DNA of 64,000 nt. It comes from Escherichia phage REP5. The notes under the pieces were generated by a model that was given only the letters and a program-made list of their open reading frames with translations, did not search any database and was not told the origin of the DNA. The stretch lies in sequence record OQ174504.1. The stretch is one strand, 5' to 3'. Below are positions 22,387 through 62,544 of this stretch, in pieces (position 1 is the stretch's first letter; each line of letters begins with the position of its first letter). The translations under genes were made by a program, and so were the position numbers.

Positions 22387-22462
22387 TAAAATAACTTGGA
22401 GAATCCGAAGGGACTCGAACCCTTATAAACCTGTTTTGCAGACAGGCACATATCCATTTCTG
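22387..22462 (-). tRNA. tRNA-Cys (GCA)
   Basis: Manual fold: acceptor GAATCCG/CGGATTC, anticodon stem CCTGT/ACAGG, loop CTGCAAA, T-loop TTCGAGT, encoded CCA. Confidence 0.6.
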
Positions 22463-22466
22463 TCAC

Positions 22467-22559
22467 GGATTCAAATTGGAGGAAGATACCAGACTTGAAC
22501 TGGTACACCGATTTCTCAGCTACTGGCAGTTTAGCAAACTGCTCCCTTACCTTTTAGGG
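22467..22559 (-). tRNA. tRNA-Ser (GCU), type II
   Basis: Acceptor GGAAGAT/ATCTTCC, anticodon stem GCAGT/ACTGC, loop TTGCTAA, long variable arm, CCA. Confidence 0.6.
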
Positions 22560-22570
22560 TTAATCTTCCA

Positions 22571-23305
22571 TTATTTCTGTAATGCGCTCTTCATTTCTGG
22601 TGTTGCAATAGTGTCAATTACACCAGTTTTACAAGCATCATCAAACCAGTCTGGTAAGATACCTGCTAAGAACCCATTGATATTCGTTTTAAGGTACTCT
22701 GCAATAAGGGCAGCTTCTTCTTCAATCATCTGCACAACTTCATCTGCATAAGCTGTAATCTTTGAGATACCTTCATTAATCTTGCTAACAGCTTGGTTAG
22801 CTAAATCAGAAACAGTATCAAGACCTTTATCAATAGCATCTTGTAAGTCACTTAATACATCATTAACACCGTCTAGTGCACTGTTCATCATGTCAATAGC
22901 TTTTTGACCATGTTCTGTAGCAACACCCATAATACCACTGAATGGTGTACAACCAACTTGTTCTCCTGCTGCACCCATAACATTGGAATACCCCTTTGCT
23001 ACCTGCATACGTGATGAAAACTCATCAATAGACTTTTGACCGTAGTCTGTTAGGGTCTTAGTAGTTGCTGTAGTGCTTGTAAGGCTTGTTGTAAAGCTGT
23101 TTAGAAGGACTGTTGTAAGTCCAGCAGCAACAAGTTTCTCCTTCATTGTAGGGTCTGTTACAGAACTAATAGAGCTTACAAGTGATGTAGAAGCAGCTAC
23201 GGTTCCACCGAGGACTGCTGCACCAGTAATAAGTGGGTTAGAAAACCCTTTACCGGTTTTTAAGAGATTAAAAATCTCCTTACCTTGTTCTGTCATCTCT
23301 TTCAT
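22571..23305 (-). CDS. hypothetical protein embedded in tRNA cluster
   Basis: ORF 22571..23368 trimmed to an internal Met to avoid overlap with tRNA-Phe. Confidence 0.35.
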   Translation of the reverse strand: MKEMTEQGKEIFNLLKTGKGFSNPLITGAAVLGGTVAASTSLVSSISSVTDPTMKEKLVAAGLTTVLLNSFTTSLTSTTATTKTLTDYGQKSIDEFSSRMQVAKGYSNVMGAAGEQVGCTPFSGIMGVATEHGQKAIDMMNSALDGVNDVLSDLQDAIDKGLDTVSDLANQAVSKINEGISKITAYADEVVQMIEEEAALIAEYLKTNINGFLAGILPDWFDDACKTGVIDTIATPEMKSALQK

Positions 23306-23323
23306 TAAGCACCTTTGAAATTG

Positions 23324-23398
23324 GTAGTCCAGTGGGATTTGAACCCTCTTCTCATGTTTTTCAGACACGCGCTTTAACCATATAAGCTACTTGGACTA
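23324..23398 (-). tRNA. tRNA-Phe (GAA)
   Basis: Acceptor TAGTCCA/TGGACTA, anticodon stem CGTGT/ACATG, loop CTGAAAA, T-loop TTCAAAT. Confidence 0.55.
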
Positions 23399-23403
23399 TA
23401 AAT

Positions 23404-23479
23404 TGGGGTGACCTACGGGATTTGAACCCGTATAGACCATGTTCACAGCATGGGTCATTACCATTTATGATAAGGCCAC
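23404..23479 (-). tRNA. tRNA-His (GUG)
   Basis: D-stem TCAT/ATGA, anticodon stem CCATG/CATGG, loop CTGTGAA, CCA. Confidence 0.6.
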
Positions 23480-23510
23480 ATTTAAGGATTCTCGTAAGAA
23501 CCCTTAGAAG

Positions 23511-23586
23511 TGGCAGCGGCATAAGGATTTGAACCTTAATAGGACAGCTTCAGAGACTGTTGCATTGCCAGTTATGCTATACCGCT
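23511..23586 (-). tRNA. tRNA-Gln (CUG)
   Basis: D-stem GCAT/ATGC, anticodon stem ACAGT/GCTGT, loop CTCTGAA, T-arm TAAGG-TTCAAAT-CCTTA. Confidence 0.55.
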
Positions 23587-23591
23587 AAATT

Positions 23592-23670
23592 TGGTACTCC
23601 ATATCGGATTCGAACCGATACATAACACAGATTTTAAGTCTGGCCTCTCTGCCAATTGGAGTAATGGAGC
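23592..23670 (-). tRNA. tRNA with anticodon UAA (Leu-type) but short variable arm
   Basis: Anticodon helix CAGA/TCTG with loop CTTAAAA; Leu-like D-arm CCAATTGGCAGAG; A73; T-arm ATCGG-TTCGAAT-CCGAT; no long extra arm. Confidence 0.45.
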
Positions 23671-23672
23671 AT

Positions 23673-23748
23673 TGGCGGGGGATGTTGGAATTGAACCAAC
23701 TTCTTCGATTTCAAAGACCGAGGTTTTAACCTTGTAAACTAATCCCCT
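23673..23748 (-). tRNA. tRNA-Gln (UUG)
   Basis: Anticodon stem TCGGT/ATCGA, loop CTTTGAA, T-arm GTTGG-TTCAATT-CCAAC. Confidence 0.5.
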
Positions 23749-23756
23749 TTAAATCT

Positions 23757-24314
23757 TTACTTTCTCAGTGGATGAATAAAGAATGCCAACATAACTCTTT
23801 CCCTTGAGAATGCTCTTTCTTCTGGGACAACGCTTTTTAGTTTCCATCCAATATAAATTCTCCAGTAAAACTGTTTACCAAAGACTTTAATTGATGGGAT
23901 AAAAGCGAATAATCCCCAAGCATTACTGTTCCACATTAGGAGATAACCAGTCTGATTATCTTCAGGGTCAGAACTTACGTTGATATTACCTTTCCACTTA
24001 GTAACATCTTTTACATCTCTTCCTAATACATGGTAAGAGAAGTTATAAGCTTTGTTTCTCCAGAGCCACCCAACTCTCTGCATATAGACACCAAGCTTAC
24101 CAATCTTTCTAATTTTAGCCCATCGTTTAACGTGACCTTCATCACCATCAATTGGGTTGTCATATGTCTCCATCCATCTGAAGCCGAAAGGTAAGTGTCC
24201 TTTCTTCTCACTGTAAAATGGAACTACGAAAGGTGCTAAGATAACTGCTAAGATTGCTGCAAATGGCTCTAACAAAGCTAATAAAATCCATGAAGCATAC
24301 TTCAAATATCTCAT
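23757..24314 (-). CDS. membrane protein embedded in tRNA cluster
   Basis: 185-aa ORF with hydrophobic N-terminus ILLALLEPFAAILAVILAPFVVPF. Confidence 0.4.
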   Translation of the reverse strand: MRYLKYASWILLALLEPFAAILAVILAPFVVPFYSEKKGHLPFGFRWMETYDNPIDGDEGHVKRWAKIRKIGKLGVYMQRVGWLWRNKAYNFSYHVLGRDVKDVTKWKGNINVSSDPEDNQTGYLLMWNSNAWGLFAFIPSIKVFGKQFYWRIYIGWKLKSVVPEERAFSRERVMLAFFIHPLRK

Positions 24315-24333
24315 CTAAATAGCCTCTTTAAAT

Positions 24334-24409
24334 TGGCGCAGGATAAGGGATTCGAACCCCTATTAACAGCTTCGTAGACTGTTGCTCTATCCATTTGAAC
24401 TAATCCTGC
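24334..24409 (-). tRNA. tRNA-Arg (ACG)
   Basis: Acceptor GCAGGAT/ATCCTGC, anticodon stem ACAGT/GCTGT, loop CTACGAA. Confidence 0.6.
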
Positions 24410-24414
24410 AAAAT

Positions 24415-24492
24415 TGGTGTTCCAAGACGGATTCGAACCGTCACTAGTACAAGGTTTGAGCTTGCATCCTCTGCCAATTGGGATACTGGAAC
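24415..24492 (-). tRNA. tRNA with anticodon CAA (Leu-type) but short variable arm
   Basis: Anticodon stem GCAAG/CTTGT, loop CTCAAAC; D-arm CCAATTGGCAGAGG; A73. Confidence 0.45.
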
Positions 24493-24493
24493 A

Positions 24494-24568
24494 TGGTACT
24501 CACTAAAGGACTTGAACCTTTTTCTTCATCTTGTAAGGGTGGTGTTTTACCATATAAACTAAGCGAGT
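24494..24568 (-). tRNA. tRNA-Val (UAC)-like, weak anticodon stem
   Basis: Loop CTTACAA; anticodon stem CCACC/GATGA has two C-A mismatches; acceptor and T-arm intact. Confidence 0.4.
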
Positions 24569-24571
24569 ATG

Positions 24572-24658
24572 AAAGAGGTCTGAAGTTGTGCCGCTAACTC
24601 AACTCCGTGGAATTTGTTACGGTCTTCAGTTGACACCAGCGGTCTTTCACTTGACCTC
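24572..24658 (-). ncRNA. tRNA-like structured element / possible pseudo-tRNA
   Basis: 7-bp terminal helix AGAGGTC/GACCTCT enclosing ~73 nt with internal hairpins but no canonical T-loop. Confidence 0.2.
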
Positions 24659-24663
24659 TGAAT

Positions 24664-24740
24664 TGGTGCTGCTCACAGGACTCGAACCCGCATTTCCATC
24701 CTTACAAGGGATGTGTAATAGCCAATTATACGAAAGCAGC
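24664..24740 (-). tRNA. tRNA-Thr (UGU)
   Basis: Anticodon stem CATCC/GGATG, loop CTTGTAA. Confidence 0.6.
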
Positions 24741-24747
24741 ATTAATT

Positions 24748-24822
24748 TGGAGCATCCAGAGGGAATCGAACCCTCAACCTCAGTTTGGAAGACTGTAATT
24801 TTCCCGTTTAAACTATGGATGC
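24748..24822 (-). tRNA. tRNA-Gly (UCC)
   Basis: Acceptor GCATCCA/TGGATGC, loop CTTCCAA. Confidence 0.6.
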
Positions 24823-24828
24823 ACTAAT

Positions 24829-24904
24829 TGGTGGAGAAGCAGGGAATTGAACCCTGTACTTAAGTTTGCAAAACTTATGTTTTAACCATGTAAACTACAT
24901 CCCC
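24829..24904 (-). tRNA. tRNA-Ala (UGC)
   Basis: Anticodon stem TAAGT/ACTTA, loop TTTGCAA; G3-U70 wobble pair present. Confidence 0.6.
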
Positions 24905-24910
24905 AATGTC

Positions 24911-24986
24911 TGGTACAGGTGGAGGGAATTGAACCCATCGTCTTACTGATTAAGAGTCAGCCGCATAACCATTTTGCTACACCTGC
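24911..24986 (-). tRNA. tRNA-Lys (CUU)
   Basis: Anticodon stem GCTGA/TCAGT, loop CTCTTAA. Confidence 0.5.
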
Positions 24987-24993
24987 ATTAATT

Positions 24994-25071
24994 TGGTAGG
25001 AGACAAGGGATTCGAACCCTCAAACATCTCGTTCTAAGCGAGATAGGTTTACCAATTACCGTCAATCTCCC
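24994..25071 (-). tRNA. tRNA with anticodon UAG (Leu-type) but short variable arm
   Basis: Anticodon stem TCTCG/CGAGA, loop CTTAGAA; D-arm GTAATTGGTAAAC; A73; 5-nt variable region. Confidence 0.45.
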
Positions 25072-25316
25072 ATTAAGTCTTTTTAGAGAACTTCTAAGAA
25101 CCTAAGCAACAAGGTTCCACAACAAGCTGTAATAACCTTAGAAGCCCTCTAAAAAGACCTAAAAAGGTCTTTGCATAGTCTTGTTTAATCCGGTGACTAG
25201 AACCTTTGGAGAGCTTGATATTATCTCTTCTCCGTGACACCTACTAGGTGTTTTATCAATGTGTACAACAATACACGCGGTATACCAAAGCAACATCCGA
25301 ATGAAGCTTGGCTTTA

Positions 25317-25406
25317 AATCTTATTAGGCGGTAAGTAAAGGAGTCGAACCCTCACCGTATCTCTACAGTGGCAACTGTTTTCAAGACAGTTTGGCTACCA
25401 TTAGCC
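25317..25406 (-). tRNA. tRNA-Ser (UGA), type II
   Basis: Anticodon stem ACTGT/ACAGT, loop CTTGAAA, ~20-nt variable arm, T-loop TTCGACT. Confidence 0.55.
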
Positions 25407-25429
25407 GCTACCTACCCCTAATAAGACTT

Positions 25430-25512
25430 TGGCATGGGACGGAGGAGTTGAACCCCTTTGAAACGGTGTTGGAAGCCGTTGCTCATGCCTTAGAGTCTTA
25501 ACATCGTCCCAT
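25430..25512 (-). tRNA. atypical tRNA-like gene (Gly-UCC-like loop with 2-nt expansion)
   Basis: Acceptor ATGGGAC/GTCCCAT with CCA; T-arm AGGGG-TTCAACT-CCTCC; anticodon helix ACGG/CCGT enclosing 9-nt loop CTTCCAACA. Confidence 0.3.
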
Positions 25513-25644
25513 ACTATAATTCGAAGCTTACCGTATTATCTCAACACTGTAAAGCCCCTTCTCAGATTATTTACATGTTCTGGAAAACATGAGATACAGA
25601 CCACCTCCCTACAGGAAGACCCGCTTAGGTCGTCTAAGTAATCT

Positions 25645-25721
25645 GCTAACTATTTGGCACACCCTACAGGATTCGAACCTGTAACTCAATGATTAGAAGT
25701 CATTTGCTCTGTCCAGTTGAA
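25645..25721 (-). tRNA. tRNA-Arg (UCU)
   Basis: Anticodon stem AATGA/TCATT, loop CTTCTAA. Confidence 0.6.
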
Positions 25722-25934
25722 CTAAGGGTGCATTAATCTTTAAAGACTCTCTTAGAAAGCCCTTAAAGATGCCCACCTTATTAATCATACCGTGGGCTAG
25801 TACGCCAAATTCTTTGATGAGGGATTGGAAGACCTCACTGGTGTTTAGCCTATCAAGCTACTGCCAGAAAAACATTGTCGTTTGCATTTATTTTAAATTT
25901 GCAAAATAGACGCTACGCAACGAAAACTAAGGTT

Positions 25935-25963
25935 ACTATAAAGTGGTCACATCTCAGTGTCAA
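25935..25963 (-). promoter_or_regulatory. sigma70-like promoter inside tRNA cluster
   Basis: Minus-strand TTGACA, 17-nt spacer, TATAGT; points leftward into a ~200-nt leader then tRNA-Arg(UCU). Confidence 0.4.
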
Positions 25964-25978
25964 CAACTTTATTGAAAT

Positions 25979-26054
25979 TGGTACTGTGAGAAGGATTCGA
26001 ACCTTCTGCCTTTCGGTTATCAGCCGAATGCACATCCATATGTGCTTTCACAGC
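25979..26054 (-). tRNA. tRNA-Ile (GAU)
   Basis: D-stem GCAC/GTGC, anticodon stem TTCGG/CCGAA, loop CTGATAA. Confidence 0.6.
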
Positions 26055-26056
26055 TT

Positions 26057-26133
26057 TGGAGGTTCAGATGGGAATCGAACCCACATTCATAGGGCTTATG
26101 AGACCCTTGCATTACCTTATCTGCGACTGAACC
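26057..26133 (-). tRNA. tRNA-Met (CAU)
   Basis: Acceptor GGTTCAG/CTGAACC, anticodon stem AGGGT/GCCCT, loop CTCATAA. Confidence 0.55.
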
Positions 26134-26137
26134 ATTT

Positions 26138-26213
26138 TGGTAGAAGTGGAGGGATTCGAACCCATCGCCTGTCAGATTAAAAGTCTGCCGCATCACCATT
26201 CTGCTACACTTCC
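26138..26213 (-). tRNA. tRNA-Lys (UUU)
   Basis: Anticodon helix GCAG/CTGA-type with loop CTTTTAA; T-loop TTCGAAT; CCA. Confidence 0.55.
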
Positions 26214-26217
26214 ATTA

Positions 26218-26361
26218 AATTATCTTTGTAGATAAGCTACCCAGACTTGCTTAAGGTCTGTAGCGATGTGCCTTGTTGGGTTTAAATCTAGAATTTACCC
26301 TTTCACCCTTTGTGGTCGCATACTCACAGGTAAGCTTAATAACTTATCTACAAAGATAATT
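26218..26361. repeat. 19-bp perfect inverted repeat (AATTATCTTTGTAGATAAG) flanking ~106 bp
   Basis: Left arm 26218-26236 is the exact reverse complement of right arm 26343-26361. Confidence 0.6.
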
Positions 26362-26400
26362 ACCAGACCGTTGTTTATCATCTTAAGTGCTACCATTACA

Positions 26401-26440
26401 CCAACTCGACATCTGCCGAGTGAAGGAATCGAACCTTCAC
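26401..26440 (-). pseudogene. tRNA remnant (3' half only)
   Basis: Intact T-arm GAAGG-TTCGATT-CCTTC and acceptor-like 3' strand, but no complementary 5' acceptor found upstream. Confidence 0.25.
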
Positions 26441-26474
26441 CTTTTCTTTACCGGAGAAATAGATTGTTTAAGTT

Positions 26475-26497
26475 TTGCTGTAAACGGTCTTCTGTAA
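26475..26497. repeat. tRNA-cluster repeat element, copy 1
   Basis: TTGCTGTAAACGGTCTTCTGTAAA. Confidence 0.55.
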
Positions 26498-26563
26498 ATT
26501 TGTTGAGCCAGACCAAGTTTTAAATTTTTCAAAATTAAATTGGCTTGAAATTTTCATACGTTC

Positions 26564-26586
26564 TTGCTGTATTTGGTCTTCTGCTC
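26564..26586. repeat. tRNA-cluster repeat element, copy 2 (diverged)
   Basis: TTGCTGTATTTGGTCTTCTGCTC. Confidence 0.45.
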
Positions 26587-26643
26587 CTTTAAAGAATACT
26601 CGTAAGAACTCTTTAAGGGAGGGGCTAAATAGCCCTCTCAAAA

Positions 26644-26729
26644 TTGGCGGCTACGATGAGACTTGAACTCACATCATCTCCCAATATCCTTTTACGTGGG
26701 AGTATTTTAACCAAATTAAACTACATAAC
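26644..26729 (-). tRNA. type II tRNA, anticodon unresolved (possibly degenerate)
   Basis: 86 nt; acceptor GGTTATG/CGTAGCC with CCA; T-arm GTGAG-TTCAAGT-CTCAT; Leu-like D-arm; anticodon region CACGTAAAA with only a 3-bp stem. Confidence 0.35.
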
Positions 26730-26734
26730 CTTTA

Positions 26735-26822
26735 TTGGTGTGCCGTGTAGGAGTCGAACCTACCGAGTCTCAATGACAAGGGATTTACAGTCCCCACCGC
26801 TACCATCTACGGGATAACGACA
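26735..26822 (-). tRNA. tRNA-Tyr (GUA), type II
   Basis: Anticodon stem GGGGA/TCCCT, loop CTGTAAA, long variable arm, T-arm GTAGG-TTCGACT-CCTAC, CCA. Confidence 0.55.
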
Positions 26823-26830
26823 CATTTAAA

Positions 26831-26906
26831 TTTGCGGTTAGTCAGGGATTCGAACCCTGTGCCATTCGCTTAACAGGCGACCGCACATACCTTATGTGCT
26901 TCCTAA
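26831..26906 (-). tRNA. tRNA-Asn (GUU)
   Basis: D-stem GCAC/GTGC, anticodon stem GTCGC/GCGAA (one mismatch), loop CTGTTAA. Confidence 0.55.
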
Positions 26907-26966
26907 CCATATTTAGTATTACCAGACCGTATCTTTCAATTTTTTCCGCTAAAAATTTGATAAGTG

Positions 26967-26990
26967 TTGCTGTAAACGGTCTTCTGTAAA
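26967..26990. repeat. tRNA-cluster repeat element, copy 3
   Basis: TTGCTGTAAACGGTCTTCTGTAAA, directly abutting the 3' end of the tRNA at 26992. Confidence 0.55.
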
Positions 26991-26991
26991 A

Positions 26992-27068
26992 TTGGAGGCG
27001 GGTGCAGGAGTCGAACCTGCCGATACCATGCTAATGAGACATGTGAGACGCCCTTTCTCTATACCCGC
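26992..27068 (-). tRNA. second CAU-anticodon tRNA (Met, fMet or Ile2)
   Basis: D-stem GAGA/TCTC, anticodon stem CATGT/GCATG, loop CTCATTA; 1-72 mismatch. Confidence 0.5.
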
Positions 27069-27133
27069 AATTCTTAATGACCAGACCAAATCTCTTCTTT
27101 GTCCGATTTACCTTCAGATGAATAAGATTAAGT

Positions 27134-27157
27134 TTGCTGTAATTGGTCTTCTGTCAA
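27134..27157. repeat. tRNA-cluster repeat element, copy 4
   Basis: TTGCTGTAATTGGTCTTCTGTCAA, abutting the 3' end of tRNA-Glu. Confidence 0.5.
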
Positions 27158-27160
27158 AAC

Positions 27161-27238
27161 TGGCGTTCCAGAAGGGATTTGAACCCTCAGATATCCACTT
27201 TGAAAGAGTGGTGACTATACCATTTTGTCTACTGGAAC
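27161..27238 (-). tRNA. tRNA-Glu (UUC)
   Basis: Acceptor GTTCCAG/CTGGAAC, anticodon stem CCACT/AGTGG, loop CTTTCAA. Confidence 0.6.
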
Positions 27239-27245
27239 ATTAATT

Positions 27246-27325
27246 TGGTCTCCGTTGAAGGATTTGAACCCTCGACCCCTTGCTCCCAAAGCAAGTGCTG
27301 CTAAACCAAACTGAGCTAAACGGAG
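27246..27325 (-). tRNA. tRNA-Pro (UGG)
   Basis: Anticodon stem CTTGC/GCAAG, loop TTTGGGA, T-arm GAGGG-TTCAAAT-CCTTC, CCA. Confidence 0.55.
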
Positions 27326-36308: not shown

Positions 36309-37920
36309 AGTAAAATTTACGAAATTTATATTTTTTATAAAATTTTATCGGTTGTCCCAACCTCTGGGTCACCATCATATGTGAATAAAAATATCTATCC
36401 TTCTTAACAACCTTCTTAATCTTACTCTCTATATATAGTTATATAGTACTATATAGTATCTTAGTATCTATCTAGTGGTCTTAATAGCCCTCTGTATAAG
36501 CCTTCTAACAAGCCCTCTAACAATCCTTCTAAACACTCTTCTAACAAGCCTTCTTAACAACCTATACAATCACCTTAACCATCTCTCTATACCCTCTTAG
36601 AAGCTCCTATACACCTCTTAATCTCTAGGTTACCTGTGTTACTTAACAGTAACCCATTATGTCAGCTATGTTACCCTCTATAGGTGTTCACTAGGTATTA
36701 CTAAGCCTCTATATAGACTGTTTTAACAAACTTAACAGGAATATCTTTACAGACCTTATCTCACAAGGTCTAACACGGTACTAACAAGGTATCTTATAAG
36801 CCTGTTTATGCCTGTATTTTTAAAAGACTGTCTAGGTAATTATTCAGAATTTTAAAATTTTTATAAAATAGGACTATCAAGTCATTTTTTAGGGTCTTTG
36901 AAGGAACTCAAAAATATCTGTAGAAGATGTATATCTGCTTGGTAGCCCTTAACAGCTCCCTTACAAGTACTTTGCAAAATTTTAAAATATCCTTAACAAT
37001 CTCTTAACAACTCTCTCAAGCTTTTAACATCTCTTTAGAGGTCTTAACAGATTCTTAACAGAACTAACAAGGCTGTAACAAGTTCTTAACAGTCAATACA
37101 TGGTCTTTACAGAGTCTTAACAGATGACTAACAAGAGCTAACAAGTTAATTTTTAAGAGTTATTTTGTTAAGATAATTAACAAGTTCCTAACAAGTGTTT
37201 AATCTTTTTAACAAGCTATTAACATGGTCACTATCTCTGGTCTTATCGTTCCCTTTCTTTCTTAGTGATTCTCTAAACATACCTCTTAAAAGCCCTCTAT
37301 AGCTCTTTGTAAGCTCTTTTAAGCCTCTTCCTAGTAATTACACCCCAACTATACAGACACCTATTTATAAGGCTTTACAGGAGCTTTAAAGGCTATGTCA
37401 AAGACTCTTACAAGGCTTTTACATGATTTTAACAGAGATTTAACAAGGGGCTAACAAGTCTCTAACAAGTGCCTTAAAAGCATAACTATGTAGGGATTGT
37501 TAAGAAATTGTTAAGAAAATGTTAAGGGGGCTAGCATTTACGTAACTTTTAAGCTACTTCAAAGTAACTTTATAGCCCCTATAACATACTTTTAAGACAC
37601 TATCAAGCCCTTTTTAATAGTTCACAAGATAGCTAACGAGATGATAAAGCTTACACCCTTATAAGGTTCTTTTAAGGCTCTAGAAAGCTCTATAAAGGGC
37701 TTTTTAAAGGGAGTTAATGCAATCCCTTAAGTTGGGTTGATAAGGCTGTTATAGGGCTTTATAGAGCGTTTAAATGGTTGCCCTTCCCTTTCGGGTTATG
37801 GGCTTATATTTAAGTTGATTTGATAAAAGGCTATAGGGTAGACTATAGAGTTATTGCTTTTTAAGGTCTGATAAGATTCTGGAAAGGAAAGGGAAAGGGT
37901 TGTATAAGGGATTTGATAAG
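36300..37920. repeat. 1.6-kb ORF-free repeat-dense region (TTAACAR / CTAACAAG family plus AT-rich TATA runs)
   Basis: No ORF of 60 aa or more on either strand; roughly 18 TTAACA and 9 CTAACAAG copies counted by eye between 36400 and 37460; CTATAGGG/TTTTAAGG/GGAAAGGG-type repeats 37500-37900. Confidence 0.7.
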
Positions 37921-37921
37921 A

Positions 37922-37946
37922 CGTAAAAAAGCCCCTATGAGGGGCT
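37922..37946 (-). terminator. rho-independent terminator ending the small-gene cluster
   Basis: Minus-strand hairpin AGCCCCTCATAGGGGCT followed by TTTTTT. Confidence 0.6.
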
Positions 37947-37964
37947 GTATAAAGGTATCTGGGG

Positions 37965-43011: not shown

Positions 43012-43100
43012 TTTTGAATCTCCTAGTTTAAGGTTAGTTAATAAAGCTCTTTATCTGGGGCTTAAGATACCAACTTTTAAGCCCCCTGTAAAGTACTTTA
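43012..43100 (-). promoter_or_regulatory. repeated upstream cassette, copy 10 (class B)
   Basis: RBS core plus hairpin GGGGCTTAAAAGTTGGTATCTTAAGCCCC. Confidence 0.5.
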
Positions 43101-43307: not shown

Positions 43308-43348
43308 TTTTCAGTTCTCCAGTTTAGGAAGTGGGCTTGTCGCCCCGT

Positions 43349-43377
43349 CTGATGCAGATACTATAAAAACCCGTTCA
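43349..43377 (-). promoter_or_regulatory. sigma70-like promoter for the small-gene cluster
   Basis: Minus-strand TTGACT, 17-nt spacer, TAGTAT, with AT-rich upstream tract; ~40 nt upstream of first gene. Confidence 0.35.
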
Positions 43378-43565
43378 AGGAGTCAATAAAAATTTTAAAA
43401 ATATTTTTGGCAAAAATGTAATGAAACGGGCGCACGCGACTACCACAAAACAGAACTACAATCAAGAATTATTTTTCAATCCGCTACAAATTTTTATGTT
43501 GACTTTTCTTTTCAGATGTGGTAGCCTCGTGAGAAATGGCGACATCCCCACCTACACCCACCTAC

Positions 43566-43742
43566 CTGCACAATTCTAAAATGATTTTTCTTGCCCGACC
43601 TGATTTTTATCTGCACGTTTTGAAAATGAAAAAGCTCTTTGGAGATTACCTGCACAGTTTGAAAATGAATTTTCTCTTTGGAGTTCAAAATTCTCTCTAC
43701 AGATTTCTCTATAGAAATCTACCTGCACAATCCTGAAATGAA
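43566..43742. repeat. four ~20-bp direct repeats CTGCAC(A/G)NTTNTGAAAATGA(A/T)
   Basis: Copies at 43566, 43611, 43650, 43723; CTCTTTGGAG also recurs twice between them. Confidence 0.6.
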
Positions 43743-43814
43743 AAAGCCCTCCTTACCTGAAAAATTTACCAGATAAGAAAGGCTTAACCTATTGTGAATA
43801 TCCTACAGAGTTTC

Positions 43815-44600
43815 TTAGTTATTTGCGTCTAAGAAGGTAACTTCTGGTGAAGAGAAGATTGCCCCAATATCCTCATCAGTTCTTGCATAGATGTAGGCAT
43901 CTGCATCACTGCCAAATGTTACTGCAATCCTGTGATTGCTCTTCGACAGGTGGGTAACTAGAGCGTTACTTAGAGACATCTTTTCAACCGGAGGGTTACT
44001 TTGATGTACCTTACCTTTTCTTCGTCTGAAGAGGGTAACTGCATTATCTGAGAACACTGCTACGCCTGCAAAGTATTCTGGTTCACAGTAGTTCTTCCAA
44101 CCTGAGTGTAACTCATTATACATTTTTGCTTCATAGACATACAGATAAACATCTACACTCTTCATTGCCTGATTAATGATAACTGTGACAGCTTGAGGGT
44201 CAAGTCCACCGATACCTGCGCCAATCATAGGTAACCCAACTTTCTTCAACTGATTAACTTCACAGTATCTGTTAAGTTGCTTCAAAGATGACTCTAAAGC
44301 ACTGTAACGGGCATCTTTACCAGTCTTAAGCTGAGTGTAAAGATTAGCTATACGACCTTGTTTTAAACGCGCTACAGAGAAATTACCTAGTAAATTTTCA
44401 CAGGGTTTGTGGCCTATACCACCTGCATACAGATAAACTTCTGTATCGGTCTCATATGCTTTTGGGTAAAGTTTAGAAATCTTAGCAGCGATACCTGCAC
44501 CCATTAAGTTCATACAGTTGCAACCGTGACCAATGATATCAAACTTACCCTTATCAAATGCGGAGAAGATATCCCCATTGATGATTTTTACAATACCCAT
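43815..44600 (-). CDS. macro-domain (ADP-ribose-binding/processing) protein
   Basis: 261-aa ORF; N-terminal IVKIINGDIFSAF..DIIGHGCNCMNLMGAGIAAKI resembles macro-domain P-loop region. Confidence 0.5.
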   Translation of the reverse strand: MGIVKIINGDIFSAFDKGKFDIIGHGCNCMNLMGAGIAAKISKLYPKAYETDTEVYLYAGGIGHKPCENLLGNFSVARLKQGRIANLYTQLKTGKDARYSALESSLKQLNRYCEVNQLKKVGLPMIGAGIGGLDPQAVTVIINQAMKSVDVYLYVYEAKMYNELHSGWKNYCEPEYFAGVAVFSDNAVTLFRRRKGKVHQSNPPVEKMSLSNALVTHLSKSNHRIAVTFGSDADAYIYARTDEDIGAIFSSPEVTFLDANN

Positions 44601-46168: not shown

Positions 46169-46981
46169 TTATTCTTGACTGTAATAGTTGACAAGTGAAA
46201 TCGCTTGATTCATCAACAACTTATCAGCCTGTGCTCCGCGACCAGCTTGTAATGCCAGTTGGTATACCTCTGTAACATATTTGTTAGACATACCTTCACA
46301 GTAGTCATTATAGTCTTCCCAAAAGGAAAATGCAGCATCACCATATAGGCGTAGTGTAATTAACATTGCTGCACGAATCCCAGAAGAATATTTCCGTTTT
46401 GCGTTTACTACACCTTTAAGCTGTACTTCAAGAGAATCAATTTGTTCCAGCTCATTTTTAAAGTCGTTAAGATATTTAACTGTTTCAGTGTTAGATACTT
46501 GTTGTACACCGTAGTATGCAGCAACATACTTAATAGCAGTTGCCCAAGATGCTTTCATCAGTTCTGACTCTGGGTTGAAAGAAATCATCTTCATATTTCC
46601 GTAATAAACTTCTGAAGGTTTTTCTCTTGCTAACTCAGAGTCAAAATGAGTGTACAAATCTGTGACATCCAATATGGAGTTCACATGGTATATAACTACA
46701 ATCAAGTTTTCTGGTCGTGTCAGGTTACCAACTTTCCATGCCTCTCGACGTGAGTGCCCATCAATGATGAACAGTGAACTGCCGAACTTAGCCACATGGA
46801 CTACTGTTTGGTCTGGTGATACGTCACCATTAAGGTGTTTACTTTTCAGACGCTTAAGTGTATTTCGTTGACGAGGGTTTTCTTTGTAACGTTTTTCATT
46901 AAGAAAATCCTCGACACTGATAATCTTAGTGTGAATTTTAACAACCTTGCCATTCAGTGCTACATTGATGCTGTTTGCCAT
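46169..46981 (-). CDS. ParB-like N-terminal domain protein
   Basis: 270-aa ORF; KENPRQR (box-I-like) and IIDGHSRREAW (GxxRxxA-like) motifs. Confidence 0.5.
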   Translation of the reverse strand: MANSINVALNGKVVKIHTKIISVEDFLNEKRYKENPRQRNTLKRLKSKHLNGDVSPDQTVVHVAKFGSSLFIIDGHSRREAWKVGNLTRPENLIVVIYHVNSILDVTDLYTHFDSELAREKPSEVYYGNMKMISFNPESELMKASWATAIKYVAAYYGVQQVSNTETVKYLNDFKNELEQIDSLEVQLKGVVNAKRKYSSGIRAAMLITLRLYGDAAFSFWEDYNDYCEGMSNKYVTEVYQLALQAGRGAQADKLLMNQAISLVNYYSQE

Positions 46982-46992
46982 AACTTGATACC

Positions 46993-47877
46993 TTAGTTGT
47001 GGATAATTACTTCGTTAATATCTTTGCTTCTCTGTGCATGTATTGTGTATGAATGGCTAACCTCTGTCAAGTTAAAATTTTCAGGAATTAGTTTTGCCCA
47101 TCCATCCCACTGAGAGTTTGACATCAAAACTTTAGAGCCTAACTCCCCCCAAGAAATCATATCTTCGCATAATTTTACAGACATCTCAATGTCAAACTTT
47201 GCACCATATTTCTGGTTGGTGTTGATATACGGGGGGTCACAGTAAATAACTGTGCCTTCTCCATGTTTTATGTCAACCCTGTCATAAGGTTCACTGCTAA
47301 GTATTACCCTCTCATCAGTGATAAAACTGTAGAACGCGGATAGTGATTCTTTAGTTTTTGTGAAGAAAATCTCTTCTTCCAGTAAATACCCACAAGGTGT
47401 TGCATAGTGACCTTTCATCTCTTTAGTAGTCTGCCATACACCACCAAAACTTAGTTTTTGAAGGAAAAACTGTCTGGCGTAGTACCTGTAGTCATATGCT
47501 CCCTCTTCACCAAGCAAAAGAAGTTCCTCTCTTACACTGTAATACATTTTATAGCGTAGACGGTTATGACGCTGGCCTTTCACGGCATACTCTTCCTGCA
47601 TAGGTAAGGCTAAGTACCTCTTTGACAAGTACTCAAATTCTTCCATGAAGTTCTCATAGTCATCTCTGAAAGTTGTGTAAAGACCTATAATATGTTTATT
47701 TATCTCATTAATAAACACTTTTGCCTCTGGATATCTGTTATAAGCCCATATAGCTACTGAACCACCACCTGAAAACAGGTCATAGAAGTTTGTACAGTTG
47801 TCTGGAAAGACACCTAAACGCTCATACTCTTTTAATATTCTTGTTTTACCACCAAGATATTTGAACATCGGCTTCAT
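46993..47877 (-). CDS. dam: DNA N6-adenine methyltransferase (Dam-like)
   Basis: 294-aa ORF; motif I FSGGGSV and motif IV DPPY. Confidence 0.75.
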   Translation of the reverse strand: MKPMFKYLGGKTRILKEYERLGVFPDNCTNFYDLFSGGGSVAIWAYNRYPEAKVFINEINKHIIGLYTTFRDDYENFMEEFEYLSKRYLALPMQEEYAVKGQRHNRLRYKMYYSVREELLLLGEEGAYDYRYYARQFFLQKLSFGGVWQTTKEMKGHYATPCGYLLEEEIFFTKTKESLSAFYSFITDERVILSSEPYDRVDIKHGEGTVIYCDPPYINTNQKYGAKFDIEMSVKLCEDMISWGELGSKVLMSNSQWDGWAKLIPENFNLTEVSHSYTIHAQRSKDINEVIIHN

Positions 47878-48402: not shown

Positions 48403-49098
48403 TCAATGTTTAACTAACATGGTTTTGATGTGTGGAAGGATTCTGTTAACCTTCTGAACATTCTTCTCTGTATCTTCTATAAAACATACTATATTAAAGT
48501 AAGGAAGAATGCAAGACTGAATCATCCTAACCTTTAAACTTTCTGCACTTAGGGAATTTGTTCCAAAGCCACGCATAAAAAGCAAGTAATCATGCTCTAT
48601 ATTGTGTCTTAAAAACATCTCAGTAGGTATTCTCTGAGTCTCACCTCTTGCTGTCAAGAACCCAACGGCTGCATGATTTGCAATTGCATCAATGATGTGG
48701 AAAACATATGTTGGTTTTGCTCTTACAGCATCAAGTAAGTTGGTGTACTGTGAAAATGACCCATCAGTCAACTCTGCTGAGTAAGCTTCGTGATTAAAAT
48801 ATGTTAGAACACCATCAATATCTGCTAGGATAAGATTTCCTTTCTCTACAAGGTCTTTATTGACTATGACTAGGCTATCACGTCTTACACCTATGGCTTT
48901 CCCAGTCTCTTTATCGACAACATTCACAATTGGCTCCGGTGTGTGGAACTCTTCGAGTGAACATACAACTTCTCTTGCAGTGTCTTCAAAATCCCTACAC
49001 TGTTCTGGAGTCCATACACAGGAATCAAGACCTAACTCATGAGGATGTAAGTCGTAAGCATGACACAGTACTTCATCAGACTTTTTTAATTTTTTCAT
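48403..49098 (-). CDS. HAD-superfamily phosphatase-like protein
   Basis: 231-aa ORF; motif ILADIDGVLT. Confidence 0.5.
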   Translation of the reverse strand: MKKLKKSDEVLCHAYDLHPHELGLDSCVWTPEQCRDFEDTAREVVCSLEEFHTPEPIVNVVDKETGKAIGVRRDSLVIVNKDLVEKGNLILADIDGVLTYFNHEAYSAELTDGSFSQYTNLLDAVRAKPTYVFHIIDAIANHAAVGFLTARGETQRIPTEMFLRHNIEHDYLLFMRGFGTNSLSAESLKVRMIQSCILPYFNIVCFIEDTEKNVQKVNRILPHIKTMLVKH

Positions 49099-49624
49099 GG
49101 TTTACCTTAGAAATGTTTGTTGCAAATTCACATTGAGCAATGACTTTCATGTTGTTATAGACATCTTGAGAATATTTCTTAGCTTTAGGGATTTTGTACG
49201 AATACCCAGCATTATATGATGCTAAAACTTTTTGTAAAGTCTTCTTTGACTTTGGCTGACCATGCACCTTTGTCCAAAACTCAAGCTCTTTGTGAGTTTC
49301 CTTCGCAGCATAATCAAAGTCTCTTAAGAGTTTCTTTTTAGCCACATTAGGGCTAATTTTGTTACGCTTTACAACAGTCTTCAAGTGATTCTGGAAAATA
49401 CCATAATCATGTGTCTTTTTATTCTCTACCTTCAGACCTAACTCTGACTCTTGTAAGGCTATAGCAGCTAGAGTGATACCCCAACCTTTACCCATGTTGT
49501 TCTCACCATACTGGTAAGCTTTTAACATGTTTACTTTTTGGCTAATTGATAGCTCTGGGCAGTCAACTGCATAAGATAAGTGTGCTGTAAACATTAAGCA
49601 CAAACCTAGAATCAATTTCTTCAT
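49076..49624 (-). CDS. secreted protein, possible lytic transglycosylase-like
   Basis: 182-aa ORF; N-terminal signal peptide; AIALQESELG resembles SLT catalytic region (weak). Confidence 0.4.
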   Translation of the reverse strand: MKKLILGLCLMFTAHLSYAVDCPELSISQKVNMLKAYQYGENNMGKGWGITLAAIALQESELGLKVENKKTHDYGIFQNHLKTVVKRNKISPNVAKKKLLRDFDYAAKETHKELEFWTKVHGQPKSKKTLQKVLASYNAGYSYKIPKAKKYSQDVYNNMKVIAQCEFATNISKVNHEKIKKV

Positions 49625-49683
49625 TGGTTCTCCTGTTTAGTTTATCGTGACAACAATTATACAGCACTCTGCACAAAATACAA

Positions 49684-49710
49684 ATAAAAAAGGCCGCCGA
49701 AGCAGCCTTT
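49684..49710 (-). terminator. rho-independent terminator after rIIB-like gene
   Basis: Minus-strand hairpin AGGCTGCTTCGGCGGCCT followed by TTTTTTATTT. Confidence 0.55.
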
Positions 49711-49724
49711 TAAGAAATTACTTA

Positions 49725-50834
49725 TTAGATTTCACGTTTACGCTGAGAGATAAGTTCACCAGCAGTGCCAACGATGACATGCAAAGCTTCAGTCTTGCCA
49801 TCCCATGCTTTCAGTACTTTACGTTGATTATCAACGATTGCTGCAACTTCATAACGAGACGAGCGCATCTTCATATCGTTGTAATCAGTTGGTACGGATA
49901 CAACGTCTCGTGGATGGACACGAACCTTCAGAATTGTATCACCTGAGAAGTAACGAACATAATCCCAAGCACCAACGTGAAGACCTTGAGAGCAAGTCAC
50001 GTTACGGTTATTATCAACCATCCAACGTGGCATTTCTACAATGTTACCCAAATCATTAGGTACTTTGCAGGTGCGGGAGTCAACCAGCTTGCCTTCACGA
50101 GTAGAGACTTTCTTCCAACCAATGATGTAGCCTTCTTCATCAATTTCAACATCAAGGTGAGATATGAATCCCCAAAGTTGTTCTACAGAATCTTTAGATG
50201 GGTTTTCCATCAGTTTTTCGAAGAACATTACAAGTCGTTCAAAACCTTTATCACCAGTCTTCATCATGTGAAGTATACGGTCAACCAGAGTAGAACGCAT
50301 CTCAACAGCACCGTAGAATAGCTTATCACCTTTGATTGTGATAGCTCCCTGCGTGAAGTTTTCGATAGACTTACGAATGTTCATCAGTTCAAAGGCTTTC
50401 TTGAACTCACCTTTCACAACATGAACTACAATCTCTTGATAGTTCGGATGAGTAGACTCAACAATTTCAGATTCTGAACCGTAAGTCATAATTACAGAGT
50501 CACCAGTAATCATGTACTCAATCTTGTCATCTTTCTGCATAGCTTCGTGCAGTTTATTTACTGGAGCTTTCTGTACAGAATCTTTAACAACCTTTTCAAC
50601 TGGTTTGTCAGCTTTCTTTTTAAAGGTCTTAGCAACTTGCTTCAAAGTCTTCGTAGCTGGTGTAGAAGTTACCTTCTTATTCCCTTTTAATGTTGCTTCA
50701 TGACGCTCTACAGCACGACCGACTGAACGGGTTGAAGTATTAAATTTCTGTGCAATAGCTGTTTTAGTCAGCTTACCTTCTTTAACCAGTTTGTAAATTT
50801 CTGCGTCAATCTGTGCTTTAGTTTTAGTAGTCAT
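49725..50834 (-). CDS. rIIB: rIIB-like protein
   Basis: 369-aa ORF directly downstream of rIIA-like gene; size and order. Confidence 0.55.
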   Translation of the reverse strand: MTTKTKAQIDAEIYKLVKEGKLTKTAIAQKFNTSTRSVGRAVERHEATLKGNKKVTSTPATKTLKQVAKTFKKKADKPVEKVVKDSVQKAPVNKLHEAMQKDDKIEYMITGDSVIMTYGSESEIVESTHPNYQEIVVHVVKGEFKKAFELMNIRKSIENFTQGAITIKGDKLFYGAVEMRSTLVDRILHMMKTGDKGFERLVMFFEKLMENPSKDSVEQLWGFISHLDVEIDEEGYIIGWKKVSTREGKLVDSRTCKVPNDLGNIVEMPRWMVDNNRNVTCSQGLHVGAWDYVRYFSGDTILKVRVHPRDVVSVPTDYNDMKMRSSRYEVAAIVDNQRKVLKAWDGKTEALHVIVGTAGELISQRKREI

Positions 50835-61031: not shown

Positions 61032-61347
61032 CTTGTTGTTCAGGTAAGTTCGCTAAGCTTACCCCGCTTTATTCAAGCTGCTTACTGTCGCCAGTAAGTC
61101 CAGACTATATCTTCTACTTATTTCTAAGTAGCGTACCATTTCGAGTCGCTTGACCCTACACCGCTACATTCATCACGGTTAGTCGTTCGGCATTTAGATG
61201 TATTCAAACTCATATTCGAAGTTATTTGGCATGTAAGACCCCTATGTTGTATAGTTTCTTACATCGTACATCATTTAGCACAGGATTGTCTACATCTGTA
61301 GAGTTTCCCTGTTTAGGCACGTTTTAGATGAGCTATAGAGCTTGTTA
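61032..61347 (-). other. group I intron (ORF-less) in nrdD
   Basis: 316 nt between exons; P/Q/R/S-like elements TGCCTAAACAGGGAAA, AATCCTGTGC, GAACGACTAACC, AAGATATAGTC; P9-like hairpin CTTACTG-GCGA-CAGTAAG; 5' exon ends in U, intron ends in G. Confidence 0.65.
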
Positions 61348-62544
61348 ACCCATCGGCGAAATAACCTTGCCAGAACGCTCAAAAGCTTCTGCTACAGCAC
61401 CATGACCAGATACACTTAAGAAGTCTGGATACATTGCTTTAGAACAACACTCAATAGCTTTACTGTACAGGTGGCCTTGACAGATATTCTCATTGTGTCT
61501 CTTCTGGTCATAAATATAAACCAGTTTAGGGAATACAACAGGCTTCTTGCTCTTACCTTGTCCATTCATACGAACATCTAGGAGAGTACTTGCAATCATG
61601 TATTGCAGTCGGTTGTCTTCATTAGACATGTCTGAGTCAAGTAACCCAAATGTCAAAGTTGTGAATGCAAAATCCCCACGACTACAAGGTACAGTATTTA
61701 GTTTCATTTCAAGTGACTGGAAACCTTGAGTTAGCTCAATCTGTAGCTGCTCCATGACATAATTGTGGTGATGTTCTTTAGGAATACCATAAGATGCTGC
61801 TTTCTCAGCATGATAGCGTAGAGACTTCTTAGCATACGGTACAAGTACCTTATCAATCTCTGCTAAAGTAAAGCCACCAAATTGCTGTGCAGTTGCTGAA
61901 AGTACTACGTCACCAATAACCTGTAAGGCTGATAGTACAGATTTAGGTTCACAGTATTCAATGCCAGACATTTCAAAGCCACCTTTCAGTACTTTACCAA
62001 TGTCAAACAGGCAACAGTTGATACCACCAAAAATTAGGTCTCTTAAATCATGGATATAGATAAACCCTTTTTCAATGGCTTCCAATTCCTCTGGTGTTAA
62101 ATGGTACTGTTTAAAGATTTCTTTAGTCAGGTAACCACGGATAATTGAACCTTTCGTAGAAATTAAACTGCTGTCAAAGTTAGCATTTTCACGGTCACCT
62201 AAGAAGAGTGTATCTTTAGTCTTCTGGTAGAGTTCATCCCAGTTTTGAGCAACCTCTTTACGGTAATTTCTATATGTTGAGTAAGACTCATAAATCTCGT
62301 GATTGACTTCTGCCAAAGCACCCTCAACAATACTGTGAATATCATTTACTGAAACGAGTAAATTATTCTGCTTAGTAGATTTTACCAGAATCCTCATAAA
62401 TGCTGACTCAAGAGCTTGAGTAACATCTGGTGGAAGCTCTTTATAACCAACTCTGTTAGCTGACTTTGTGACTGCTGCTAAAACTTTTTTGATATCAGGT
62501 TCTTCAAGTGAGCCATTCTTTTTAATAATCTGTACTTTGTTCAT
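61348..62544 (-). CDS. nrdD: anaerobic ribonucleoside-triphosphate reductase, exon 1 (ATP-cone N-terminus)
   Basis: N-terminal ATP-cone-like VQIIKKNGSLEEPDIKKV; exon ends ...VISPMG before intron. Confidence 0.75.

Follow-up and report, generated by a model that had tools for sequence, protein, structure and literature searches.

A conserved two-part repeat array in a control region of Felix O1-like phages, read as putative protein-recognition sites

INTRODUCTION

What might four short direct repeats do between a macro-domain gene and a cluster of small genes in Escherichia phage REP5? The repeats occupy positions 43566-43742 of a 64,000-nucleotide stretch of this phage (sequence record OQ174504.1), which we analyzed as a whole and call the window. 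An earlier note, made from the letters of the window, had proposed that they form an operator or iteron array for a phage or host regulator. The region matches the Felix O1-like phages (Ounavirinae; Felixounavirus) and is near-identical to phages REP6 and REP7; specifically, the 507-bp intergenic region that holds the repeats (43308-43814) has the same coordinates in Escherichia phage REP6 and is 100% identical there. The Felix O1-like phages count among the classic typing phages for Salmonella and also find wide use in biocontrol. The Felix O1 genome paper left the timing of transcription, and the passage of transcription through many terminators, unexplained (PMC3185647). In the literature searched, we found neither a description of the motif reported here nor a transcriptome of a Felix O1-like phage.

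RESULTS

The repeats are copies of a two-part motif

The pattern CTGCACRNTYYTRAAATGA, with up to two mismatches allowed, matches exactly four times in the window, at 43566, 43611, 43650, and 43723, always on the + strand. Only 0.07 matches are expected, and none of 100 shuffled sequences reaches four, which places the repeats beyond the chance similarity of AT-rich sequence that the earlier note had named as the threat to its proposal. The four copies, 29 nt each, form one family with spacings of 45, 39, and 73 bp, within the 39-73 bp first described, and the second sequence that had been seen in two of the spacers is there as well: CTCTTTGGAG lies at 43635 and 43674 and occurs once elsewhere in the window, against 0.19 expected. 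Tandem Repeats Finder (TRF) reports a 39-nt period for the array. The unit is indeed repeated, but its proposed length of about 20 bp has to be revised, since it extends over about 36-39 bp.

The core of the unit is an 18-bp, two-part motif, TGCAC-N7-AAATGA, followed by a 5-bp A/T run, and it starts at 43567, 43612, 43651, and 43724. The full unit reads (TA)CC-TGCAC-N7-AAATGA-W5-(G/T)C and then continues into a box that differs between lineages; in the window, two units have CTCTTTGGAG as this box. On the + strand, unit 1 (43567..43584) has the core TGCAC-AATTCTA-AAATGA, then TTTTT and the box CTTGCCCGACC; unit 2 (43612..43629) has TGCAC-GTTTTGA-AAATGA, then AAAAG and CTCTTTGGAG (43635-43644); unit 3 (43651..43668) has TGCAC-AGTTTGA-AAATGA, then ATTTT and CTCTTTGGAG (43674-43683); and unit 4 (43724..43741) has TGCAC-AATCCTG-AAATGA. 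This last repeat adjoins the terminator of the macro gene (43785-43744, - strand), whose T-tract is complementary to the AAATGA plus AAAAAG half of the unit. Compared with the reference copy, the units show 63-86% identity. A scan for the exact form TGCAC-N7-AAATRAW gives five matches in the window, where 0.09 are expected; all five are on the + strand, and the other 23 kb of REP6 have none.

The motif halves are conserved where the surrounding DNA is not

GenBank phages and IMG/VR contigs yielded 49 arrays, of which 40 are distinct, and more are present in metagenome contigs. In every lineage that has the array, it keeps one orientation and a constant position, just past the macro gene at its 3' end, and the copy number ranges from three to five. 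Felixounavirus, Suspvirus, and Mooglevirus carry four units at the same place, spaced 45/39/73 or 45/41/75; Kolesnikvirus, which includes Erwinia and Salmonella phages, carries four spaced 39/37/37; and an uncultured 88-kb lineage carries five. Phages with three units also exist, one of them by precise deletion of a single 39-bp unit, and unit 3 is the one absent from three-copy variants such as BPSELC-1, pSJ21, and finno. Of the whole 507-bp intergenic region, blastn aligns only the array between the window and the Erwinia phages.

Within the unit, conservation follows the two halves of the core. Among 94 distinct units from five lineages, TGCAC and AAATGA hold 1.7-2.0 bits per position, compared with 0.7-1.3 for the N7 between them, which is merely A/T-biased, and the gap between the halves is constantly 7 bp. 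In 20 distinct Felix-type arrays, the variable columns number 3 of 44 inside the cores and 40 of 85 outside. The run that follows AAATGA switches between A5 and T5 from unit to unit and stays A/T only; therefore, what it keeps is a property of the DNA and not an RNA sequence. We also inspected 79 loci around relatives of the macro gene in other phage groups and found an array in just two (L232, L233, L086 lineage). In the sister contigs L232 and L233, one TGCAC unit is decaying while another is improving.

A fifth copy lies at a second junction

The fifth exact match, missed in the earlier note, is an orphan at 49670..49687 on the + strand, in the same orientation as the array. It reads TGCAC-AAAATAC-AAATAA followed by AAAAGG and stands immediately past the rho-independent terminator (49688..49711, - strand) of rIIB, as the gene at 49725-50834 is named by its correspondence with the REP6 annotation. 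Its layout mirrors that of unit 4, in that AAATRA and the A-run complement the T-tract of the terminator and, on the - strand, GTGCAG comes 7 bp farther on. Unlike the array, the orphan overlaps a promoter: it straddles the -35 element of a - strand promoter, TTGnnn-16-TATAAT, whose TATAAT lies at 49661-49656. This promoter belongs to the next gene (49076-49624), which encodes a putative SLT-like lipoprotein. Since the N7 region, read on the - strand, provides the TTGnnn and the conserved TATAAT follows about 7 nt after GTGCAG, the motif halves bracket the -35 element of a real-looking promoter. The orphan is present in all Felix- or Moogle-type loci that extend far enough; its N7 is lineage-specific (AAAATAC, ATTTTTC, AAATCAC, AGATTGC), with TGCAC, AAATAA, and the -10 element fixed.

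The motif could not be taken as a class of promoter, because no -10 element stands at a fixed distance from the units on either strand. GTGCAG followed by TAnnnT in an intergenic context occurs solely at the orphan site and is no general promoter feature of this genome.

A proposed explanation: a recognition site on duplex DNA

Altogether, the five sites share one orientation and lie at two junctions, between rIIB and the next gene and between the macro gene and the 13 small early genes. We propose that at both junctions, each leading from a terminator to a promoter of the long leftward transcription unit, a putative DNA-binding protein may recognize the motif sequence-specifically; this reading is drawn from sequence comparison, and we give it an even chance. 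The motif has a fixed internal geometry and is conserved above its surroundings, as operators are, and its conserved blocks are 12-13 bp apart, which is about one helical turn. A monomer with two DNA-reading heads would bind both blocks, as AraC/XylS-type proteins or iteron-binding Rep proteins do, and such a binder could be encoded by the phage or by the host. A protein bound at the orphan would compete with RNA polymerase, leading to repression, or would replace the -35 contact. The four-site cluster would load several copies of the factor upstream of the small-gene promoter, and, once loaded, would time the transcription of the small genes or insulate them from the upstream unit. Action as DNA, binding by a protein, and the direction of any regulation are what we infer; the motif itself is rare, deeply conserved, and neither coding nor a structured RNA. 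The earlier suggestion of an operator or iteron array is thus retained as an array of recognition sites, which suits the two-part core, the invariant blocks, the non-coding and unstructured DNA, and the five sites per genome. It is not retained in its narrower sense, as the array is too distant from the promoter (180-380 bp) for a classical operator, its spacing is unlike that of plasmid or lambda iterons, and no initiator gene was found nearby.

Several observations weigh against this proposal. Searches of 30 neighboring open reading frames (ORFs), including the small ones that flank the array, against Pfam and PHROGs found no DNA-binding domain, and the sole DNA-binding or regulator candidate is a distant HTH_3 protein (REP6 82563-82862), of a type that usually reads palindromes. 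The array stands 180-380 bp away from the small-gene promoter, and the spacing of its units (37-45 and 73-83 bp) is not helically phased and differs between genera, with cumulative helical turns of 4.29/8.0/14.95 in the Felix type versus 3.71/7.24/10.76 in Kolesnikvirus. In Kolesnikvirus, a sigma70 promoter matching 10 of 12 positions points at the array and is followed by a hairpin, and the window-type haplotype retains TTGACT-17-TGnTAnnnT facing the array; the repeats may therefore be transcribed, which makes a role at the RNA level possible. Finally, the motif copies at unit 4 and at the orphan share part of their sequence with the T-tract of a terminator, so that some of the conservation at these two sites has another cause.

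Alternative explanations

The main alternative, raised by these promoters, is that the array is the body of a non-coding, unstructured + strand RNA, whose four UGCAC-N7-AAAUGA copies titrate an RNA-binding protein or endoribonuclease, for example as a decoy in the form of a type III antitoxin (ToxI or pseudo-ToxI). Every unit contains AAAU or GAAAU, and AA^AU and GAA^AU are the reported cleavage motifs of ToxN (PMC8860590); all units share a single orientation, and their lengths of 37-45 nt fall within the 31-62 nt of type III antitoxin repeats (PMC3401426). In Kolesnikvirus, TTGACG-18-TATACT (10/12) and an A/T tract point at the array, and the leader hairpin is 97% paired, with G-U pairs possible on the + strand only and two compensatory pairs; its covariation score, from two haplotypes sampled, is reached by 1 of 500 shuffles. 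In the window-type haplotype, TTGACT, TG, T-12, A-11, and T-7 are kept next to a variable spacer. However, no usable -10 element is present in the haplotypes of wV8, Moogle, and Suspvirus (TAAGAG or TAATAG, without TG), and the orphan has no + strand promoter. The hairpin past unit 4 needs G-U pairs that form on the - strand and lacks a U-tract on the + strand, so that a + strand RNA would have no fixed end and would continue as antisense RNA into the macro gene, the convergent next gene; no toxin or other gene follows on the + strand. Thus, the order promoter, repeats, terminator, toxin on one strand, which type III antitoxins have, is absent here, and even the promoter is found only in some lineages. 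The comparison with the near-identical repeats of constant length (31-62 nt) in type III arrays is mixed: units span 37-39 nt in Kolesnikvirus but an irregular 45/39/73 in the window and other Felix-type phages, and they are 63-86% identical. The + strand folds no better than shuffled sequences (z = +0.16 for the window and +0.28 for Erwinia phage MM7), no covarying pairs lie inside the units, A5 and U5 interchange within them, and scans of 185,579 species genomes, 5,426 E. coli genomes, and 72,556 plasmids found nothing like the array. On this balance, we regard a repeat RNA as unlikely. A more specific form, in which the transcribed array is a subfamily-wide, pseudo-ToxI-like decoy for a host endoribonuclease or RNA-binding defense protein and the orphan is a cis-acting protective tag, is a long shot; if true, the decoy would be a standing analogue of pseudo-ToxI, so far only a laboratory escape route in phage PhiTE.

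On the DNA side, the repeats might instead be iterons of a phage origin, where an initiator binds, the A/T-rich flank melts, and the adjacent promoters activate or prime replication. At least three co-oriented repeats of 17-22 bp, the mark of iterons, are present: the four repeats are co-oriented, asymmetric, and unique in the genome; segments of 72-80% A+T (GC 20-28%) lie at 43350-43424 and 43450-43499; back-to-back promoters stand next to the array; and in a distant lineage the array adjoins a second array of 9-11-bp periodicity. Against this, domain searches of the neighboring ORFs found no initiator-like (Rep-like) gene, the 37-83 bp spacing is irregular compared with the roughly two-turn spacing of known iterons, the A/T-rich DNA is equally accounted for by UP elements of the two promoters, the orphan stands 6 kb off with no origin-like context, and the GC skew, rejected here as a marker of an origin, merely tracks the direction of transcription. 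A far more origin-like region exists at 36380-37960, where 1.6 kb of ORF-free DNA carries 11-bp-periodic TAACAAG repeats, and we consider an origin at the array improbable. The repeats could also belong to a small protein gene encoding a repetitive peptide such as YLHxxKM, given that in most phages the + strand frame CTG CAC ... AAA ATG stays open over 46-110 codons and that ORFs are annotated there, on the - strand in wV8 (gene 13) and SP116 (ORF19) and on the + strand as EcSzw2_16 and Moogle gp115. But these annotations differ in strand and frame between records, the Sf18 type has no start codon, the frame is different in wV8 and Moogle, and no ribosome-binding site is visible. Moreover, substitutions in the 20 distinct arrays fall 14/14/14 over the codon positions, and indels of -2, +2, +4, and +10 nt destroy every frame between lineages. 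The array is non-coding, several database records wrongly annotate small proteins there, and we give the peptide almost no credence. That the repeats are a functionless leftover of local tandem duplication, or a chance similarity in A/T-rich DNA, is scarcely more credible: the units do stand head-to-tail with a 39-nt period, their number varies from 3 to 5, and the left arm of the terminator is the beginning of a further unit (TTACCTG), but chance is excluded by the motif statistics, and the half-motifs are invariant across genera in which the N7 varies and the surrounding intergenic DNA cannot be aligned. The orphan, an independent copy, shows the same pattern of conservation, and the decay of one unit against the improvement of another in L232/L233 is the turnover expected of redundant functional sites.

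Other candidates that were rejected

A structured RNA was sought by single-sequence and alignment folds on both strands, and only the - strand terminator behaves as a helix. The - strand z of -2.46 is due to this terminator and one palindrome, the covariation term is positive on both strands, and Rfam gave nothing over the array at the gathering threshold or at E<=1. An origin of the array in a host sequence that it mimics was rejected as well, as a pattern scan of the 185,579 species genomes and blastn against the 5,426 E. coli genomes and 72,556 plasmids returned nothing relevant; tandem TGCAC-N7-AAATGA occurs in no Enterobacterales genome among those species. The matches of a metagenome scan were limited to arrays of the Ounavirinae type and to repeats that are coding or due to chance.

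The array is not a genome end or packaging site either. The experimentally mapped 608-bp terminal repeat of phage UAB_Phi87 (PMC4837284) maps to window positions 23548-24155, and the Andreotti record, which starts within the array, is a short record of 83 kb. The UAB_Phi87 repeat maps inside a cluster of 25 tRNA genes (22397-27325, - strand), and the physical genome ends probably lie in this tRNA cluster region.

Layout of the intergenic region and its neighbors

The genes that surround the array are on the - strand, and leftward along this strand the order is macro gene, rho-independent terminator, intergenic region, promoter, and 13 small genes. The macro-domain gene that had been placed beside the repeats (43815-44600, - strand) is borne out by a match to Pfam Macro (PF01661, E=7e-8), and the 13-gene cluster beyond the promoter agrees with REP6, in which 13 small coding sequences are annotated downstream of it, from 43307 to 37965. 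The strong terminator of the macro gene (43744..43785, - strand) is a 17-pair stem followed by TTTTTCATTT, and because the stem uses G-U pairs, it is specific to the - strand. A sigma70-like promoter for the small genes is present at 43358..43386 (- strand, TTGACT-17-TAGTAT), close to the 43349-43377 first given for it; the repeats had been placed just upstream of this promoter, and they are upstream of it, but by 180-380 bp. Between the two, the invariant A/T tract AAAAATATTTTTAAAA (43393-43408) lies just upstream of the promoter, and a nearly invariant A/T-rich block, TCAAGAATTATTTTTCAATCCGCTACAAATTTTT.TGTTGACTTTT, spans 43460..43508, with no strand assigned and with changes that are not codon-like. 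At 43499..43527 (+ strand), a candidate promoter points toward the repeats. It reads TTGACT-17-TAGCCT and has TG at -15/-14, but its -10 element falls below the 4-of-6 rule of the scan; the wV8 and Moogle phages, of the G-rich haplotype, have TAAGAG or TAATAG in place of TAGCCT. In Erwinia phage MM7 (L017:792-822) and its relatives, the leader hairpin lies between the + strand promoter and the array.

Immediately 5' of unit 1, 1.9 copies of the C-rich decamer CCCACCTACA occupy 43547..43565 (+ strand); phages of the wV8, Moogle, and Kolesnik types carry a G-run block in their place. The DNA before unit 1 (window 43505-43565) thus consists of alternative modules, the C-rich CCCACCTACA x1.9 or a G-run block such as GGGGAGAGGGGGAGTAAGAGGGGGAGAGGGG; the G-run module has G-quadruplex potential on the + strand, and neither module is a simple inversion of the other. 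The long spacer that separates unit 3 from unit 4 contains a palindrome with perfect 8-bp arms, AGATTTCT-CTAT-AGAAATCT, at 43701-43720, and the conservation of this palindrome in other phages is only partial. Gaps within the small-gene cluster (43012-43100 and others) hold short intergenic cassettes with a GC-rich hairpin inside the promoter spacer, laid out as TTTACA-GGGGGCTTAA...TTAAGCCCC-TATCTT; these are the counterpart of the direct repeats in the wV8 annotation and of those on the list given for Felix O1.

Compared with REP6, the window has an extra 1.8-kb insert at 46.2-47.9 kb (46169-47877), in which it resembles the slightly larger REP7. The insert carries a D12-class (Dam-type) adenine methylase gene and a 270-aa ORF, which is phrog_2615, has no Pfam match, and is ParB-like by eye only. 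Since REP6 lacks the insert and has an identical intergenic region, neither the ParB-like nor the Dam gene is needed for the array. A methylase gene also adjoins the macro gene in the L086 lineage. Farther along the window, a group I intron (61081-61462, - strand; Rfam RF00028, 53.6 bits) lies beside an ORF (61345-62544) that corresponds by position to the NrdD-like anaerobic ribonucleotide reductase gene of REP6.

A second repeat field at 36.4-37.9 kb

The more origin-like region, 36380-37960, is about 1.6 kb of DNA nearly without ORFs at the convergent junction of a + strand block and the small-gene cluster, and it is blank in the REP6 annotation. It is packed with repeats of the CTTAACAAG or TAACA(A/G) type, mostly spaced 11 bp apart, so that TAACAAG reaches 8.2 per kb there against 0.11 per kb elsewhere, and an inverted TTGTTAAG cluster lies at 37497-37528. 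We regard this region as a candidate origin or nucleoprotein platform, better placed for such a role than the array. In a distant Ounavirinae-like lineage, eleven TGTTAA-type repeats stand beside a five-unit TGCAC array (L086:608-760; IMGVR_UViG_3300045988_063805), and their 9-11-bp spacing is the periodicity of the DNA helix; the hexamer is the one seen in the 36.4-37.9-kb field, in a smaller array. This adjacency hints that the TGCAC array and the TGTTAA/TAACAAG-type repeats might work jointly on DNA. A link within the window was not supported: two CTCTAYAG copies between units 3 and 4 match the 36.4-37.9-kb repeats in a degenerate form only, which is too common in the window (1.68 per kb) for the match to be significant.

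DISCUSSION

A five-site motif found throughout the subfamily gives a concrete handle on the timing of transcription in Felix O1-like phages, and the sites may have a role in timing or insulating early transcription. The motif also matters for engineering these phages, because the intergenic region that holds the array looks tempting as an insertion site. The feature is best read, as far as comparison of genomes allows, as a previously undescribed case of a familiar class: clustered, putative protein-recognition sites in a phage control region.

The array can be compared with several known systems. The pseudo-ToxI repeats of Pectobacterium phage PhiTE and the type III antitoxin arrays ToxI, CptI, and TenpI (PMC3475682, PMC3401426) are likewise tandem, non-coding, A-rich repeats of about 36-45 nt with AAAU, with a hairpin after the repeats, a promoter before them (here in Kolesnikvirus), and a lytic myovirus as carrier. 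They differ in that the array has no toxin gene, a convergent next gene, a hairpin that belongs to the other strand, and no pseudoknot-type covariation, and in that its units are 63-86% alike and of unequal length, with no bacterial counterpart in the genomes and plasmids scanned. The iterons of theta-type origins, such as the lambda ori bound by O and the P1, F, and R6K origins bound by Rep proteins, resemble the array in their 4-5 co-oriented, asymmetric repeats of about 18-20 bp, unique to the replicon and adjacent to A/T-rich DNA and promoters; here, the spacing is long and irregular (37-83 bp), no initiator gene was found beside the array, and a larger, more origin-like repeat field lies at 36.4-37.9 kb.

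Similar in the architecture of the single site are the targets of the monomeric AraC/XylS proteins, which carry two helix-turn-helix motifs: the marbox of MarA, SoxS, and Rob (AYnGCACnnWnnRYYAAAYn) and the TGCA-N6-GGNTA direct repeats of XylS. Both they and the units described here are asymmetric sites of 18-20 bp, used as direct repeats, in which a first block with GCAC or TGCA and an A-rich second block are separated by about 7 A/T-rich bp. The comparison with known regulator sites that the earlier note had called for gave no assignment to the marbox: against its consensus, the units match 8-10 of 14 specified positions, which equals the best background positions of the same intergenic region. 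In addition, the A-rich block is 1 bp nearer to GCAC here, and the T before GCAC and the TGA after AAA lie outside the marbox. The resemblance to MarA, SoxS, and Rob sites is therefore architectural only.

As a control region, the locus invites comparison with the early/late switch of the Bacillus phage phi29, where the divergent promoters A2b/A2c and A3 flank four sites for protein p4. In phi29, these sites take the form of inverted repeats that a dimer reads, and they overlap with the promoters, whereas the sites of the array are asymmetric direct repeats 180-380 bp from the promoter, and no p4-like gene was recognized here. What the two share is a cluster of short, A/T-rich sites within one intergenic control region of a lytic phage, set between opposed sigma-A/sigma70 promoters and served by the polymerase of the host, with no phage RNA polymerase in either.

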